From contig DASUOW010000083.1 of NCBI GenBank assembly GCA_036276435.1, forward strand, positions 1 through 36,189: DNA of 36,189 bases, written 5' to 3'. This DNA comes from Gemmatimonadales bacterium. GTDB taxonomy: Bacteria > Gemmatimonadota > Gemmatimonadetes > Gemmatimonadales > GWC2-71-9. The position numbers and the translations under genes are program-made. Positions 1 to 33,694 of this stretch are shown here, one piece after another (within the stretch, counting starts at the first letter, position 1; each line of letters begins with the position of its first letter). The notes beneath the pieces were generated by a model. That model did no database searches and had not been told where the DNA came from. It saw only the letters and a program-made list of their open reading frames with translations.

Positions 1-1701
<1,701 letters not shown>

Positions 1702-1719: not shown

Positions 1720-2052
1720 ATGATCCTCCTGCGCACCGCGTCCCTCGACCTGCTGCTCGTGTCACCCCGACTGCTCCTCCTCAAGCACAGCCCGCGGTGC
1801 GGGGTCAGTCGCTGGGCGCTCGAGGAGGTGGAGCAGCTCGAGCGCGAGGGCGACGTGGGTCCCATCGCGATGGTGGATGTGGTGGCCGATCGGGAACTGT
1901 CGCAGGCGGTGGCCGACCGCATCGGGGTGCGGCACCAGTCGCCGCAGCTCATCTTCCTGGAGGAGGGGATCGTGCGCTGGCACATCTCGCACGGGGCCAT
2001 CACGGCCGACGCGGTCCGGCACCGCCTCTCGGGGGCACCGGACCGCGTGTAA
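1720..2052 (+). CDS. ytxJ: Bacillithiol-system monothiol thioredoxin-like protein YtxJ
   Basis: 110 aa. LKHSPRCGVS matches the YtxJ KHS-x-x-C-x-IS active-site motif. GVRHQSPQLIFLEEGIVRWHISHGAIT matches the YtxJ C-terminal block. 18 nt downstream of the previous gene. Confidence 0.8.
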   Translation: MILLRTASLDLLLVSPRLLLLKHSPRCGVSRWALEEVEQLEREGDVGPIAMVDVVADRELSQAVADRIGVRHQSPQLIFLEEGIVRWHISHGAITADAVRHRLSGAPDRV

Positions 2053-2538: not shown

Positions 2539-2981
2539 CCGGGGAGCCCTCGGGCTCCGGGTACTGCCTGGCGTGGAACGCATCGCGTCTCCCACGCCCG
2601 ATAATCCTGCCTTCGGCACCGAGCTATCTCGCCGTCCTTCGTGGTACCCAGCGCGAGACCTCTAGTTTTGCGGCCCCGGATCACTCCGGGTGTGCTCTTA
2701 TCGGGCGATCAACAGATGGTTTCTTGACGTCCAACTCCCTGACGACGATTCAAGGTACGGGTCGGGCCGCGGGCGGTCAACAGGAGGTCACGATACTTGC
2801 CTAAGTCGTTGCATTGATTATTTTTACGCGTTCCCGCGCTGTTCGAATTTCGACTGCTATTCCGGGTGTATCGGTTCCGTTGTGGCCCCGCTGCCACGAA
2901 AAGCCGGGTCGGCGCGTCCCCGCCCGGGGACGACTCGCCGTCTCGACGTTTGACACCACCTCTCGCCGAGGTCCGACCCGC

Positions 2982-12303: not shown

Positions 12304-13164
12304 TCAGTCCAGCCGGTTGAGGAAGAAGACGGACGTCACGAGGTTCGCCTGCTCGGGCGCCGAGCTCCCGCGCACCGTGCGCTCGCTCTCGCCGGCGAGC
12401 TGGATCTCGATGCCGCGCAGGTTGGCCAGCGAGGTCGGCACCGTGTCCGACGGCACGCGGTTGTTCAGGATGAAGAACCGGAAGCGGGCCGTGGTGTCGA
12501 ACGGCGCCACGAGCTCCTCCACGTCGTCGACCACCGGGTTGCCCGACTGGTCCAGCAGCTTCCGCCACAGCCCCCGGCGGCCCGGCACCGCGGCCGAGTT
12601 CTCGAAGGCGTACTCGATGTAGCGGATCAGCGTGATCGGCGTGCCGATGGCGGGCACCGTGGCGATGCTGCCCTGCACCCGCAGGACCGCGGCGCCGGGC
12701 ATGATCGTCATGTTGGCCGGCGAGCTGGTGCAGAGGGACGTGGTTCCCGCCACGGGCGGCGTGTTGTTCATGTAGTACGTGTACTGCCCGTCGAGCGCGT
12801 TGCGCACGGCGAAGCCGGTGTAACCCATGCCGTAGAGCGTGGCGTCCACCGGCATGAAGAGGGCGGTGATGTCGGACCCCGACGCCTGGCACACGAGGCC
12901 CATCGCGTACGGCACCCGGATGCGGATCCGGCTCGGCTCCGCCAGCAGCACCCCGTCGTGCGCGTCCGTCATGCGCAGCTCGGCGCCCAGGAAGTTCACC
13001 GCGGTGCGCGCCACGCCGCGCGCGCTGCGGGTCTGCTCCACCCGGTCGTTGAAGCGGGACTGCGTCACGAAGATCTGCAGCAGGCTCGCGCCCAGGATGG
13101 CGGCGAGCACCACGCCGATCAGCAGTTCGATGAGCGTGACGCCCCGGCGAGCGGCAAGGCGCAT
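12304..13164 (-). CDS. PilW/GspJ-like minor (pseudo)pilin
   Basis: Trimmed to ATG 13164. Prepilin signal MRLAARRG|VTLIELLIGVVLAAILG (G-1, E+5). Confidence 0.75.
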   Translation of the reverse strand: MRLAARRGVTLIELLIGVVLAAILGASLLQIFVTQSRFNDRVEQTRSARGVARTAVNFLGAELRMTDAHDGVLLAEPSRIRIRVPYAMGLVCQASGSDITALFMPVDATLYGMGYTGFAVRNALDGQYTYYMNNTPPVAGTTSLCTSSPANMTIMPGAAVLRVQGSIATVPAIGTPITLIRYIEYAFENSAAVPGRRGLWRKLLDQSGNPVVDDVEELVAPFDTTARFRFFILNNRVPSDTVPTSLANLRGIEIQLAGESERTVRGSSAPEQANLVTSVFFLNRLD

Positions 13165-13166
13165 GA

Positions 13167-13574
13167 TCAGGTCCCCCCGAAGTCGAGCGCGCCGACGTTG
13201 CTGGCGCGGTCGATGATGACGGTATCGGGCGCGATGAGCCCGGCGGTGAGCGGCCGCACGATGACACGCACCTGCTGCTGCCGGTTGCTGATGTTCGTGA
13301 CGGTGGTGCAGCGCTGGTACGCCCACGGCGCCGAGGTGGTGGTGTCGCAGCTGGTGCCCACCACCAGGGCAGCCGTGGGCAGCGCCGTGACGCGCGCGAG
13401 CTCGGAGCTCAGGAACACCGTCTGGTACGAGCGCACCGAGCTGAGCGTGTTGCGCTTCGCGGTGCGCATCGTCAGGCCGGCGAGCGCGACGCTCGCGATG
13501 CCGAAGATCACGATGGCGATCAGCACCTCGATCACGGAGAAGCCGCGCCGGGCGCGGCGGGACGGTCGGGTCAT
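13167..13574 (-). CDS. PilV/GspI-like minor (pseudo)pilin
   Basis: Trimmed to ATG 13574. Prepilin signal MTRPSRRARRG|FSVIEVLIAIVIFGIA. 135 aa. Confidence 0.75.
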   Translation of the reverse strand: MTRPSRRARRGFSVIEVLIAIVIFGIASVALAGLTMRTAKRNTLSSVRSYQTVFLSSELARVTALPTAALVVGTSCDTTTSAPWAYQRCTTVTNISNRQQQVRVIVRPLTAGLIAPDTVIIDRASNVGALDFGGT

Positions 13575-13588
13575 GGGTCGGGTGGTCC

Positions 13589-14047
13589 TCACGGGGAGGG
13601 CGGCGTGGTGATCCGCACGAAGCCGGCGCTCGACATCGTGATCCGCCGGGTCTTGCCGTCGACGGTGATGTCCACCTCGAGCGCCGCACTCAGGCGTCCC
13701 GGCGGCAGGATCGTCACCGTCGCGGGCGTGAAGGTCATCGACGTCACGGTGTAGGGCGTGCCGGCGCCGAGGCCGCGCTCGAGGCGCAGCGCGCCGTCGT
13801 TGAGCACGTCGTTGAGCCGGTAGATCCGGTTCGGGCAGTCGCACGAGAGGATCAGCGGCTGACGCAGCCGGCCGCCCGTGCTGAAGGCGTTCTCGAGGTC
13901 GGCGGCCACGATCGACGCGGCCCGGTCCACCTTCGACCGCGAGATCGTCGAGCCCACCTTCGCCACGGCCATCGTCGCCAGGATGCCGACGACGACCACG
14001 GTGAGGGCCAGCTCGATCATGGTGAAGCCACGTCGGGTCGTGCGCAT
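13589..14047 (-). CDS. FimT/FimU/GspH-like minor (pseudo)pilin
   Basis: Prepilin signal MRTTRRG|FTMIELALTVVVVGILA followed by a GspH/FimT-like AADLENAF segment. 152 aa. First gene of the four-gene string. Confidence 0.78.
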   Translation of the reverse strand: MRTTRRGFTMIELALTVVVVGILATMAVAKVGSTISRSKVDRAASIVAADLENAFSTGGRLRQPLILSCDCPNRIYRLNDVLNDGALRLERGLGAGTPYTVTSMTFTPATVTILPPGRLSAALEVDITVDGKTRRITMSSAGFVRITTPPSP

Positions 14048-29597: not shown

Positions 29598-29987
29598 TCA
29601 GGACGAATGGCTGAGCGTCCAGACGTAGGCCGAGACGGCCTTCACATCCTCGTCGCTGATCTGCGAACCGCCCTTGGCCGGCATCGGGCCCTTGCCCAGC
29701 TTGGCCTCGCCGGCGGCGACGCCCTTGGTGACGAGCGCGACGATGCCCGCGAAGTCACCGTCCTTGACGTGCACCCACTCCTTGTCCGTCAGGTTCGGGC
29801 CGACGGCACCCTTGGCCTCGGGACCATGGCACGCGAAGCACAGCCCGGTGCCCTTGTAGATGGTCTTGCCCTTCTCCACCATCGCCGGCGTCACGCCCGC
29901 CGGCAACTTGGCCTGCGCAGCCGCCGGAGCGGCAGCAGCGACGGCCAGCGTGGCGACGAGAAGGCCGAGACGAGTCAGCGTCTTCAT
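29598..29987 (-). CDS. Small periplasmic class I c-type cytochrome
   Basis: Trimmed to ATG 29987 (GGGAG plus a 6-nt spacer). Signal peptide MKTLTRLGLLVATLAVAAAAPAAAQA. Heme motif CFACH. Distal Met candidate in GPMPAKG. Confidence 0.85.
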   Translation of the reverse strand: MKTLTRLGLLVATLAVAAAAPAAAQAKLPAGVTPAMVEKGKTIYKGTGLCFACHGPEAKGAVGPNLTDKEWVHVKDGDFAGIVALVTKGVAAGEAKLGKGPMPAKGGSQISDEDVKAVSAYVWTLSHSS

Positions 29988-30319
29988 GAACGACTCCCTG
30001 GGAATGGTTGGCGCGACACGGGGCATAGCCTCACGACATTTTACGTACGTCGCCCCGGAACACAAGGCTGCCGAGCGCATGCCTTGTACCACCCTCCAAC
30101 TCCCTATTCCGCCGAGCGAGCCGGGTTCCTGATGGTTCGATCCGGGACGATTTGTCCCCGTTCATGGACACTGCGGCTCGCGGAGGGTCAGGGCGCGGAG
30201 CGCCCCGGAGCCTTGTTTCGGCCGTGTCCGGCAAGCGCTGTACGTCCCTTGGCGCGGTTTCCTCCGTCCGCTACGATTCGCCGAGCCGACTTGAGACACC
30301 TGCCCTGGAGCCTGCCGAG

Positions 30320-30550
30320 ATGCTGGTCGCCATTCAGTACTGCGTCGTCTGAAACTACGAACCGCGAGCCGCCGGTCTGGTGGCTGAACTGGAAGCAGCC
30401 TTTCCCGGGGTGCAGACGCGGCTCGAGCCGTCGTCCGGCGGCGTGTTCGTCGTGACGGTCGACGGCGAGCAGGTGTTCTCGAAGAAGGCGGAGGGGCGCC
30501 ACGCCGAGCCCGGGGAAATCGTCGCACGCATACGCGCGCTGCGCGGCTGA
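30320..30550 (+). CDS. SelW-like / Rdx-family thioredoxin-fold selenoprotein, in-frame TGA (Sec) at 30350-30352
   Basis: Manual translation gives MLVAIQYCVV-U-NYEPRAAGLVAELEAAFPGVQTRLEPSSGGVFVVTVDGEQVFSKKAEGRHAEPGEIVARIRALRG. It matches the Rdx pattern I-x-YC-x-x-C/U ... G-x-F-x-V-x-VDGE ... GR-x-P-x-P-x-E. The TGA falls exactly at the second redox position (CVVU). GC3 stays high after the TGA. The ORF track ends at the TGA (30152..30352). Confidence 0.75.
30367..30385 (+). promoter_or_regulatory. Candidate bacterial SECIS hairpin
   Basis: AGCCGCC (30367-30373), loop GGUCU, GGUGGCU (30379-30385). The stem is 7 bp including one G-U pair. The loop begins 21 nt after the UGA and contains GGUC, as in the E. 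coli fdhF SECIS apical loop. Confidence 0.45.
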
Positions 30551-30567
30551 GCAGACCAAGGAGCAGG

Positions 30568-31647
30568 ATGCGCATTGCAGTCAACACGGGCGGCGGGGAC
30601 GCGCCCGGCCTCAACGCCGTCATCCGCGCGGTGGTGCTCGCGGCCCACCACCGGGGGTGGCAGACCTACGGCATCCAGCGCGGCTACGACGGCCTGCTGG
30701 CCTTCCAGGGCGTGGTGCACCTCGATCCCGACGACGTGCGCGGCATCACCAGCCAGGGCGGCACCATCCTCGGCACCACCAACCGCGGCAATCCGTTCCG
30801 CAGCGTGGCCACGCTGCCCGATGGCTCGCGGCAGGAGGTCGACCGCTCGGACGAGCTGATCGCCGCGTTCCGCGCGAGCGGCTTCGAGGCGCTCGTGGCC
30901 ATCGGCGGCGACGGCAGCCTGCAGATCGCGGCCGGCCTCGCGGCCAAGGGCCTGCCGGTGGTGTGCGTGCCCAAGACGATCGACAACGACGTCGCCGCCA
31001 CCGAGCAGACGTTCGGCTTCGACACGGCGGTGAACATCGCCACGGACGCCATCGACAAGCTCCACTCCACCGCCGAGAGCCACCAGCGCGTGATGGTGGT
31101 GGAGCTCATGGGGCGCGACACGGGCTGGATCGCGCTGCACAGCGGCATCAGCGGCACCGCGGACGTGATCCTCATTCCGGAGATCCCGTTCGACATCGAG
31201 AAGGTCTGCGACAAGATCCGCGACCGCGACGCCACCGGGAAGCACTTCAGCATCGTCGTCGTCGCGGAGGGCGCGCGCCCGGTGGACGGCGACGTGGAGC
31301 TGCTCGAACGCCGCGGCGCCGGCACGGTGGACCGCCTCGGCGGCATCGGCAGCAAGGTGGCGCACCTCATCTCCGAGCGCGTCGACAAGGAGGTGCGCTC
31401 GCTGGTGCTCGGGCACCTGCAGCGTGGCGGCTCGCCCACCACGTACGACCGGCTGCTCGGGCTCCGCTTCGGCACGGCGGCGGTGCAGGCCATCGCCGAC
31501 TGCGACTACGGCACCATGGTGGCACTCCGCGGCACTGGCATCGTGCGCGTGCCGCTCGCCGACGCGGTGGGCCGGCAGCGGAAGATCCCGCTCGACTCCG
31601 ACATCATCACCACGGCACGGTCCCTTGGAATCAGCCTCGGTGACTGA
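30568..31647 (+). CDS. pfkA: 6-phosphofructokinase (PfkA family; phosphoryl donor not decidable from sequence)
   Basis: GGGDAPGLNA, IGGDGS, PKTIDND and MGR motifs. AAGGAG 4 nt upstream of the ATG. Gly at the GGDGS position (ATP-type) but Lys in PKTIDND (PPi-type/group III). Confidence 0.93.
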   Translation: MRIAVNTGGGDAPGLNAVIRAVVLAAHHRGWQTYGIQRGYDGLLAFQGVVHLDPDDVRGITSQGGTILGTTNRGNPFRSVATLPDGSRQEVDRSDELIAAFRASGFEALVAIGGDGSLQIAAGLAAKGLPVVCVPKTIDNDVAATEQTFGFDTAVNIATDAIDKLHSTAESHQRVMVVELMGRDTGWIALHSGISGTADVILIPEIPFDIEKVCDKIRDRDATGKHFSIVVVAEGARPVDGDVELLERRGAGTVDRLGGIGSKVAHLISERVDKEVRSLVLGHLQRGGSPTTYDRLLGLRFGTAAVQAIADCDYGTMVALRGTGIVRVPLADAVGRQRKIPLDSDIITTARSLGISLGD

Positions 31648-33694
31648 GCGGGCCGCCACGCCCGCCCATCCCCCCACGCGCGCCGAGCCCGTGGTGGACG
31701 TGCTCCACGGCGAGCCCGTCCACGATCCGTATCGCTGGCTCGAGCAGGGCGACGCGCCCGAGGTGGCGGCGTGGACCGCGGCGCAGAACGCCTGCACCGA
31801 GGCGTGGCTCGCCGCGCGGCCCGTGCGTGCGACGATCCGCCGGCGGCTCGAGCAGCTGCTCGCCATCGGCAGCATCGGCACGCCCACGCCGGTGCACGGC
31901 CGCTACCTCTACCAGCGGCGCGACGGCGCGCAGAACCAGCCGGTGCTGTACGTGCGCGACGGCGTCGAGGGCGTCGACCGCGTCGCGGTGGATCCCAACA
32001 CGCTCGCCGCCGACGGCACCACGGCGCTCGACTGGTACCATCCGAGCCCCGACGGCCGGCTGCTCGCGTACGGCCTCTCCACCGACGGCAGCGAGCACAG
32101 CACGCTGCACGTGCTCGACCTCGGCACGCTCGCGCCGCTGCCCGACCGCATCCCGCGCACGCGCGCCGCCGACGTGGCGTGGCTCCCTGACGCGAGCGGC
32201 TTCTACTACACGCGCTACCCGGCGCCCGGCGAGGTGCCCGAGGGCGAGGAGCCCTACCACCGCGCGGTGTGGTTCCACCGCCTGGGCGACGATCCGGCGC
32301 ACGACGCGCCGGTCTTCAAGCCCGCGCAGAAGGAGCACTGGCCGGGCGTGTCGCTGTCCGAGGATGGGCGCTGGCTCATCGTCGGCGTCGCGCGCACCTT
32401 CGACCAGACCGACCTGTACCTCGCCGACCTCGCCAGCGGCGGCGAGCTCCTGCCGGTGGCGAAGGACCTCCCCGCGATCTTCGATGGACAGGTCGTGCGC
32501 GGTACGCTCTTCATCCGCACGAACGAGGGTGCACCGACCTTCCGCGTCTACGCCGCCGAGGTCGCGCGACCGGAGCGCGCCAACTGGCGCGAGGTGGTCC
32601 CGGCGCGTCCGGACGCCGTGCTCTCGAGCCTCGGTGTCACGCGCGAGTGCCTCGTACTCGACTATCTGGAGAGGGCCTCCGCGCGACTGTACCTCGCGGG
32701 GCTCGACGGACGCGACGTGCGAGAGCTGCCGCTGCCGGCCATCGGCAGCCTGTTCGGGCTGGGTTCGGAGCCGGACGGCACGGAACTCTTCGTGGGATTC
32801 TCGTCGTACACGGTGCCGCCGAGCATCTACCGCGTGGACCTCGTGAGCGGCGAGCGGCGGCTGTGGAAGCGGGTGGAGGCCGACCTCGAGCCGGAGCGCT
32901 TCGCGGTGGAGCAGGTCACGTACACGTCGCGCGACGGCACGCCGGTGACGATGTTCATGGTGCGCCGCCGCGACGTGGTGCCGGGCGCGGGCGCGCCGTG
33001 CTACCTCACCGGCTACGGCGGGTTCAACATCTCCATGACGCCGGCCTTCGCGCGGTCCCTGCTGCTGTGGCTCGAGCGCGGGGGCATCGTGGCGGTGCCG
33101 AACCTGCGTGGCGGCGGCGAGTACGGCGAGGGATGGCACCAGGACGGCATGCTCGGCCGGAAGCAGCACACCTTCGACGACTTCATCGCGGCCGCGGAGT
33201 GGCTGGTCGCCGAGCGATGGACCACGCCCGCCCGGCTCGCCGTCGCGGGAGGATCCAACGGCGGGCTCCTGATGGGGGCGGTGCTCACGCAGCGGCCCGA
33301 CCTGTTCCGTGCGGTGGTGATCCAGGTGCCGCTGCTCGACATGCTGCGCTACCACAAGTTCCTCATCGCGCGGCTGTGGATCCCCGAGTACGGCTCGCCC
33401 GACCATCCGGAGCAGTTCCGCTGGCTGCGCGCCTACTCGCCGTATCATCACGTGGTGGAGGGGACGCCGTATCCCGCGGTGCTCCTCGCCACGGCGGAGA
33501 GCGACAGCCGGGTGGACCCGATGCATGCGCGGAAGATGGCCGCGCGGCTGCAGCAGGCCACGTCGTCGGGGCGGCCGGTGCTGCTCCGCCTCGAGGCGAA
33601 GGCGGGCCACGGCGCGGGCAAGCCGCTGGCGAAGGTGCTCGACGAACTCACCGACACCTGGACGTTCATCTTTCACGAGGTCGGCCTCGCGTGA
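31640..33694 (+). CDS. Prolyl oligopeptidase (S9A serine peptidase)
   Basis: Start set at GTG 31640, overlapping the pfk end by 8 nt. N-terminal DPYRWLE motif. Beta-propeller region. Catalytic GGSNGGLL (Ser), D in ESDSRVDP and H in GHGAG. Confidence 0.92.
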   Translation: MTERAATPAHPPTRAEPVVDVLHGEPVHDPYRWLEQGDAPEVAAWTAAQNACTEAWLAARPVRATIRRRLEQLLAIGSIGTPTPVHGRYLYQRRDGAQNQPVLYVRDGVEGVDRVAVDPNTLAADGTTALDWYHPSPDGRLLAYGLSTDGSEHSTLHVLDLGTLAPLPDRIPRTRAADVAWLPDASGFYYTRYPAPGEVPEGEEPYHRAVWFHRLGDDPAHDAPVFKPAQKEHWPGVSLSEDGRWLIVGVARTFDQTDLYLADLASGGELLPVAKDLPAIFDGQVVRGTLFIRTNEGAPTFRVYAAEVARPERANWREVVPARPDAVLSSLGVTRECLVLDYLERASARLYLAGLDGRDVRELPLPAIGSLFGLGSEPDGTELFVGFSSYTVPPSIYRVDLVSGERRLWKRVEADLEPERFAVEQVTYTSRDGTPVTMFMVRRRDVVPGAGAPCYLTGYGGFNISMTPAFARSLLLWLERGGIVAVPNLRGGGEYGEGWHQDGMLGRKQHTFDDFIAAAEWLVAERWTTPARLAVAGGSNGGLLMGAVLTQRPDLFRAVVIQVPLLDMLRYHKFLIARLWIPEYGSPDHPEQFRWLRAYSPYHHVVEGTPYPAVLLATAESDSRVDPMHARKMAARLQQATSSGRPVLLRLEAKAGHGAGKPLAKVLDELTDTWTFIFHEVGLA

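Follow-up and report, generated by a model that had tools for sequence, protein, structure and literature searches.

The question raised by this locus is whether the TGA at 30350-30352 ends a reading frame or lies within one. In the list of open reading frames for the window (the whole 36,189-nucleotide stretch of DNA that was analyzed), the region is cut in two: one ORF at 30152..30352, whose tail reads MLVAIQYCVV, and a 56-aa ORF at 30380..30550 that begins with GTG. The sequence-only reading had joined that tail, through the TGA, to the sequence beyond it as a single gene of 76 aa, and all of its coordinates proved exact. As read from the sequence, the start codon is the ATG at 30320-30322 and Cys8 is encoded by the TGC at 30341-30343; in translation, the in-frame TGA at 30350-30352 is followed by 65 sense codons, up to the TGA at 30548-30550, and the read-through product begins MLVAIQYCVV[U]NYEPRAAGL. 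The features of the gene are the following:

30307..30310, + strand: GGAG, a putative Shine-Dalgarno-like site 9 nt 5' of the ATG, called from its resemblance to the consensus alone
30320..30550, + strand: predicted SelW-like (Rdx-family) selenoprotein gene, 76 codons including one in-frame UGA, with its terminal TGA at 30548-30550
30341..30352, + strand: predicted CVVU redox motif, Cys8-Val-Val-Sec11, aligned with the CxxC of 2fa8 and 3dex
30350..30352, + strand: in-frame UGA, very probably decoded as selenocysteine, judging by TGA conservation across relatives

The closest relative, L001, has AGGAGG where the window has the Shine-Dalgarno-like GGAG. Third-position GC in the window gene is 0.90 over codons 1-10 and 0.83 over codons 12-76, in keeping with the earlier claim that it stays coding-like past the TGA. 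It had also been predicted that standard gene callers would split or drop such a gene, and among the database relatives, 56-57-aa ORFs starting 3' of the TGA indeed account for 12 of 15. The ENA and JGI gene calls (P0001-P0014) systematically truncate the selenoprotein, with ORFs whose start, GTG or ATG, lies just past the Sec codon; the label that JGI puts on the truncated fragments is "selT/selW/selH-like putative selenoprotein".

Membership of the Rdx family, which had been put forward from the residue pattern, was examined by profile scoring of the 76-aa product with U written as C. It scores above the cutoffs of all three relevant models: 76.3 bits against a cutoff of 22.6 (E 2e-21) for Pfam Rdx PF10262, where residues 3-72 lie on profile positions 2-73 of 74, 92.3 against 88 for NCBIfam NF041051, and 68.1 against 34.2 for NCBIfam TIGR02174. 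The Rdx proteins 2fa8, 3dex, 2oka and 2obk of the PDB match the window protein at E values of about 1e-9, with their CxxC opposite CVVU. The TGA falls opposite the second Cys of YCTQC in 2fa8 and 3dex, and in two metagenome variants it is replaced by TGT (giving CVVC); its proposed identity as the second redox residue of a CxxC-type motif thus holds. As a stand-in for the window protein, an AlphaFold2 model was used of P0004, a Cys homologue with 65% identity (pLDDT 89.5). This model has the topology β1-α1-β2-β3-β4-α2, with elements E-H-E-E-E-(H)-H, and places the redox motif between β1 (residues 2-8) and α1 (residues 14-27); its top 23 matches in the PDB are all Rdx-family structures, with TM scores up to 0.89 (2fa8). 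On these sequence and model data, the product is predicted to be a small SelW-like protein of thioredoxin fold with a Cys8-x-x-Sec11 redox center, and its most likely role is that of a small thiol/selenol oxidoreductase.

When one genome was scanned for each GTDB species, 257 relatives came up; the comparison uses the best 80, which are without exception Gemmatimonadota MAGs. At the aligned codon, TGA is found in 80 of 80 loci (best 80 of 257), with the peptide conserved on both sides, and the protein is kept to its stop in all 80, in agreement with the proposal that coding continues beyond the TGA. Among the 81 sequences formed by these relatives and the window, a start codon stands ten codons 5' of the UGA in every one (ATG in 76, GTG in 5) and Cys8 is invariant (TGC in 75, TGT in 6). 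Most of the variation in the ten codons ahead of the UGA is synonymous, Val10 for instance being GTC, GTT or GTG, and downstream, too, variation is concentrated at third codon positions. A DNA pattern that allowed any base at the third position of the Sec codon was run over metagenome contigs and matched 121 times, on 120 contigs, with TGA in 121 of 121.

Protein searches brought up two single metagenome contigs that have TGT (Cys) at this codon, L081 at 594-596 and L082 at 673-675. Their SECIS hairpin, GGGCCGCC-GGTCT-GGCGGCC, is wholly intact, and the TGT codons reflect either read errors or a very recent change from Sec to Cys. In a third contig (L083, 1164-1166) the DNA has TGA, though the corresponding JGI protein, P0015, is written CVVW; the W is a translation-table artefact, which made a selenoprotein resemble a full-length ordinary protein.

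The RNA element proposed for the decoding of this codon lies immediately downstream:

30367..30385, + strand: bacterial SECIS-type hairpin, a candidate from RNAalifold and covariation, with a 7-bp stem and the 5-nt loop GGUCU at 30374-30378

The hairpin reads AGCCGCC / GGUCU / GGUGGCU, its stem begins 14 nt past the UGA, and it is present in both minimum-free-energy folds. Folding of single sequences over the hairpin region gave nothing better than shuffles (z = -0.79 and +0.27), so that the significance of the hairpin rests on comparative data. In an ungapped alignment of 81 sequences (the best 80 of the 257 relatives plus the window), the RNAalifold consensus is exactly the 7-bp helix and nothing else. 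In the same alignment, 98.1% of the cells are paired, against 16-59% with slid partners; four of the seven pairs show compensatory (double) changes, and the observed covariation was reached in 0 of 500 shuffles. The outer pair links two synonymous sites that change in concert, the third positions of the Arg16 and Ala22 codons; it is GC in 45 sequences, AU in 18 and CG in 8. Third-position entropy over codons 17-21 is 0.73, 0, 0.28, 0 and 0.17 bit, compared with 1.1-2.0 elsewhere at comparable four-fold codons, and the Gly19 codon in the loop is GGT in 75 of 81 despite a third-position GC of about 0.85, while Gly40 and Gly41 favor GGC. Since the hairpin lies inside coding sequence, its bases are under constraint at the protein and the RNA level at once.

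The second base of the loop is G in all 81 genome sequences and in 90 of 90 distinct metagenome sequences. Among those 90 (contigs L086-L205) the loops are GGUCU in 57, AGUUU in 10, AGUCU in 6, CGUGC in 4, CGUGU in 4 and GGGCU in 3, with others besides, and the stems survive double substitutions that change the amino acids, as in GGCCCUC-CGUGC-GAGGGAC, where AAGLAA becomes ALRARD. Set beside the SECIS criterion of PMC1088965, the element has its stem 14 nt after the UGA, a G in the loop, covariation and constraint at synonymous sites. The SECIS candidate that had been picked out at 30367-30385 from the single sequence is thus upheld by a stem kept in relatives, by covariation and by frozen synonymous sites. 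Rfam gave no SECIS or other family at the hairpin, either at the gathering threshold or at E values up to 10 over 30300-30450. The bacterial SECIS models of Rfam are each tied to a lineage and give low scores to short hairpins in coding regions, for which reason this miss is weak negative evidence.

The reference SelB-binding hairpin, the SECIS of Escherichia coli fdhF, offers a direct comparison, the fdhF sequence after its UGA having been verified as a 100% match to fdhF in 5419 genomes. Both elements have an apical GGUCU within the coding region just past the UGA; counted from the U of UGA it occupies +21..25 in fdhF and +24..28 in the window, where it lies one codon (3 nt) further from the UGA. 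The window has a GC-rich stem that pairs perfectly over its 7 bp and lacks the bulged U seen in fdhF. In a SECIS element, SelB makes its contacts with G and U of the loop.

If the TGA were instead a true stop, the real gene would be the 56-aa ORF from the GTG at 30380, and the first ten codons would be no part of it. That ORF stands in the ORF list and still scores 46.4 bits on Pfam Rdx by itself, and 12 database clusters are annotated in this 56-57-aa form. The GTG is not conserved, however: codon 21 is GCG in 75 of 81 sequences, and a start codon of any kind at codons 20-21 occurs in 8 of 81, too few for the 56-aa model to be the conserved gene. In most sequences the first in-frame ATG, GTG or TTG comes at codon 33 or beyond, where a start would remove β1, the CxxU motif and α1. 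Even the 56-aa product would be without strand β1, the redox motif and half of helix α1, going by the P0004 model, whereas the N-terminus adds 30 bits to the Pfam Rdx score and its ten codons are conserved in frame with synonymous variation, including the start and Cys8 in 81 of 81; a genuine stop here is accordingly very improbable. The TGA might also have arisen through faulty sequencing or assembly, or through recent nonsense mutation of a Cys codon (TGC or TGT), in a gene that is either a pseudogene or really of CxxC type, and the TGT of L081 and L082 is indeed one base apart from TGA. Its presence in 80 of 80 independent assemblies (best 80 of 257) and in 121 of 121 metagenome matches effectively refutes this, and a systematic error shared across ENA, JGI, NCBI and Logan sources is implausible. 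The protein downstream is moreover conserved to the stop in the 80 relatives, with third-position variation, and the hairpin is under RNA-level selection that a CxxC gene would not need, all of which leaves an error or a decayed gene with a negligible probability.

A little more room, though still not much, is left for read-through of the UGA with some other residue, be it Cys or Trp inserted by a near-cognate tRNA with stimulation by the hairpin, Cys carried on tRNA-Sec, or lineage-wide reassignment of the codon to Trp or Gly. Such an outcome, which is improbable overall, would fit with the lack of Sec machinery in the window and the related loci searched, and JGI writes W at the UGA codon in P0015; that W, however, comes from the translation table, as noted above. 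TGA is the commonest stop codon in the window, ending 13 of the 19 gene models (12 if selW's own stop is left out), and none of the others among the 19 has an internal TGA, which together indicate a standard genetic code and exclude a global reassignment. The UGA also stands at the catalytic Cys/Sec site of the Rdx family, and the GGUCU loop, its invariant second-position G and a spacing one codon off that of fdhF suit a SECIS bound by SelB, not a generic stimulator of read-through.

Selenocysteine insertion is thus the reading with which we continue. During translation, the UGA at 30350-30352 would not be read as a stop; the hairpin at 30367-30385, with its GGUCU loop, would serve as a bacterial SECIS element and recruit SelB.GTP.Sec-tRNA(Sec) to the ribosome, selenocysteine would be inserted at the UGA, and translation would run on to the TGA at 30548-30550. 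The hairpin would at the same time code for Arg-Ala-Ala-Gly-Leu-Val/Ala-Ala, at the start of helix α1, and the finished product would cycle between a selenenylsulfide and a reduced form. As far as sequence comparison can tell, this is very probably a genuine SECIS-dependent SelW-like gene with Sec at the UGA, with SelB as the presumed agent of insertion.

Genes for selA, selB, selD and tRNA-Sec were found neither in the 36-kb window nor in the roughly 200 related loci (about 1.3 Mb), all of which come from this same neighborhood, so that the negative says only that the sel genes are unlinked to selW. Within the window, Pfam searches of about 28 ORFs gave no SelA, SelB or SelD domain and ARAGORN gave no tRNA; over the related loci, tblastn with SelA, SelB and SelD of E. 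coli gave no match, and aragorn found no tRNA-Sec, a weak negative from a run without a positive control. Across some 200 independent sequences the UGA is never replaced and the RNA element is under selection, a pattern incompatible with a lineage that does not decode it, and on this evolutionary argument we infer that the organism has selABCD.

The loci were also scanned for further selenoproteins, as a TGA followed by a hairpin with a GGTCT loop; apart from selW and out-of-frame artefacts at its hairpin, this returned a single site, which looks non-coding (L021). Five sites came from a more general scan, for a TGA with a hairpin and coding signal to either side; they resemble neighboring genes in a common frame. 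Where ORFs of the window adjoin in the same frame, at 1699, 14139, 24385 and 26602, the stops are those of ordinary genes, and 1720-2052 (+ strand), considered as a second read-through, has an ATG of its own and is a distinct gene. The latter encodes a BrxC-type monothiol bacilliredoxin (PF11009, E 2e-23) and lies 18 nt past the TGA of a 3-hydroxyacyl-CoA dehydrogenase gene, in the same frame.

On its 3' side, selW is followed closely by a gene of glycolysis:

30568..31647, + strand: pfk, ATP-phosphofructokinase family (Pfam PFK, E 6e-104)

The gap between the stop of selW and the ATG at 30568 is 17 nt, just as the sequence-only reading had it, and the Pfam match confirms the identity of the neighbor. 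Among the best 80 of the 257 relatives, pfk lies directly 3' of selW in 60, about 190-250 nt past the UGA, and the remaining 20 have a DEAD-helicase-like gene in that place. A search of 29900-31800 in the window gave no terminator-like or promoter-like sites; with nothing of the kind between selW and pfk, co-transcription is plausible, and the two genes are probably transcribed together. The 5' neighbors of selW are a cytochrome c gene in the window and MCP, OmpA-like and DUF4015 genes in the relatives, a variety that speaks against a functional link on that side. One speculative extension is that SelW serves PFK or glycolytic flux as a dedicated redox partner or regulator, and is also a main reason for the retention of costly Sec machinery in a phylum of largely aerobic soil bacteria; the idea arises because SelW is near-universal and fixed for Sec in Gemmatimonadales (TGA in 201 of 201 sampled, the two TGT contigs having been found separately) and forms an operon with pfk in most. 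It is unlikely to be right as a whole, though if true it would hand bacterial SelW a concrete, testable partner.

Elsewhere in the window, a full-length c-di-GMP-I riboswitch (RF01051, 45.3 bits) was detected at 2612-2706 (- strand), directly 5' of a minus-strand ORF at 2065-2619; this ORF has no Pfam match and is read as a putative c-di-GMP-regulated gene. Two adjacent ORFs at 12304-14047 (- strand) carry prokaryotic N-terminal methylation motifs of type IV pilin-like character (PF07963), as weak matches.

Bacterial SelW-like selenoproteins have been known since 2005, with few Cys homologues (Zhang, Fomenko and Gladyshev 2005, PMC1088965; Zhang et al. 2006, PMC1794560). Those with CxxU made up the largest selenoprotein family of the Sargasso Sea survey, with 48 genes (PMC1088965), which bears out the earlier statement that the family is known in bacteria and that this is no new system; SECIS hairpins with a conserved loop G have been documented for them (PMC1088965, PMC1794560), and their role has been described as unclear (PMC1088965). 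The window protein resembles them (PF10262, TIGR02174 CXXU_selWTH, NF041051 SelTWH_Campy) in its size of about 75-80 aa, its N-terminal CxxU and its thioredoxin-like fold; in both, a small hairpin whose apical loop contains G comes directly after the in-frame UGA, and Sec forms outnumber Cys forms (PMC1794560). Unlike the members already described, it belongs to the Gemmatimonadota, known here mostly from soil, sediment and freshwater MAGs, and it forms a tight pair with pfk, seen in the 60 of 80 genomes mentioned (best 80 of 257).

By the P0004 model, the CxxC Rdx proteins Atu0228 (2fa8), SAV_2001 (3dex), a PA3341-like protein (2oka) and those of P. fluorescens (2obk) and V. cholerae (2p0g) superpose with TM scores of 0.82-0.89 and rmsd of 1.2-2.1 Å; they are about 100-108 aa long as expressed, whereas the window protein, at 76 aa, is minimal and would have Sec in the second position. 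Mammalian SelW (2npb) and MIEN1 (2ljk) belong to the same Rdx family, and SelW shares the CxxU; the likeness is weak but significant, with E 6e-4 for mouse SelW 2npb and a TM score of 0.71 for the P0004 model. Eukaryotic SelW relies on a SECIS in the 3'-UTR with SBP2/eEFSec, in contrast to the window gene, with its coding-region hairpin of bacterial SelB type.

Within the literature searched there is no report of selenocysteine or selenoproteins in Gemmatimonadota, Gemmatimonadetes or Gemmatimonas, nor any experimental demonstration that selenium is incorporated in this lineage, only incidental co-mentions, and the supplements of large Se-trait surveys hold no entry for Gemmatimonadota. The gene represents neither a new mechanism nor a new family, being a further member of the SelW-like selenoproteins; what is mildly new is limited to the pairing of selW with pfk and to Sec being fixed throughout Gemmatimonadales.

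Public metagenome protein sets miscall this gene as a 56-57-aa fragment, which hides its catalytic CxxU center, and a corrected annotation would mark the whole Gemmatimonadales clade as users of selenocysteine. The locus also provides a clean and deeply sampled case of a SECIS within coding sequence, under overlapping constraints from protein and RNA, and the conserved pairing of selW with pfk offers a possible handle on the function of bacterial SelW-like proteins.
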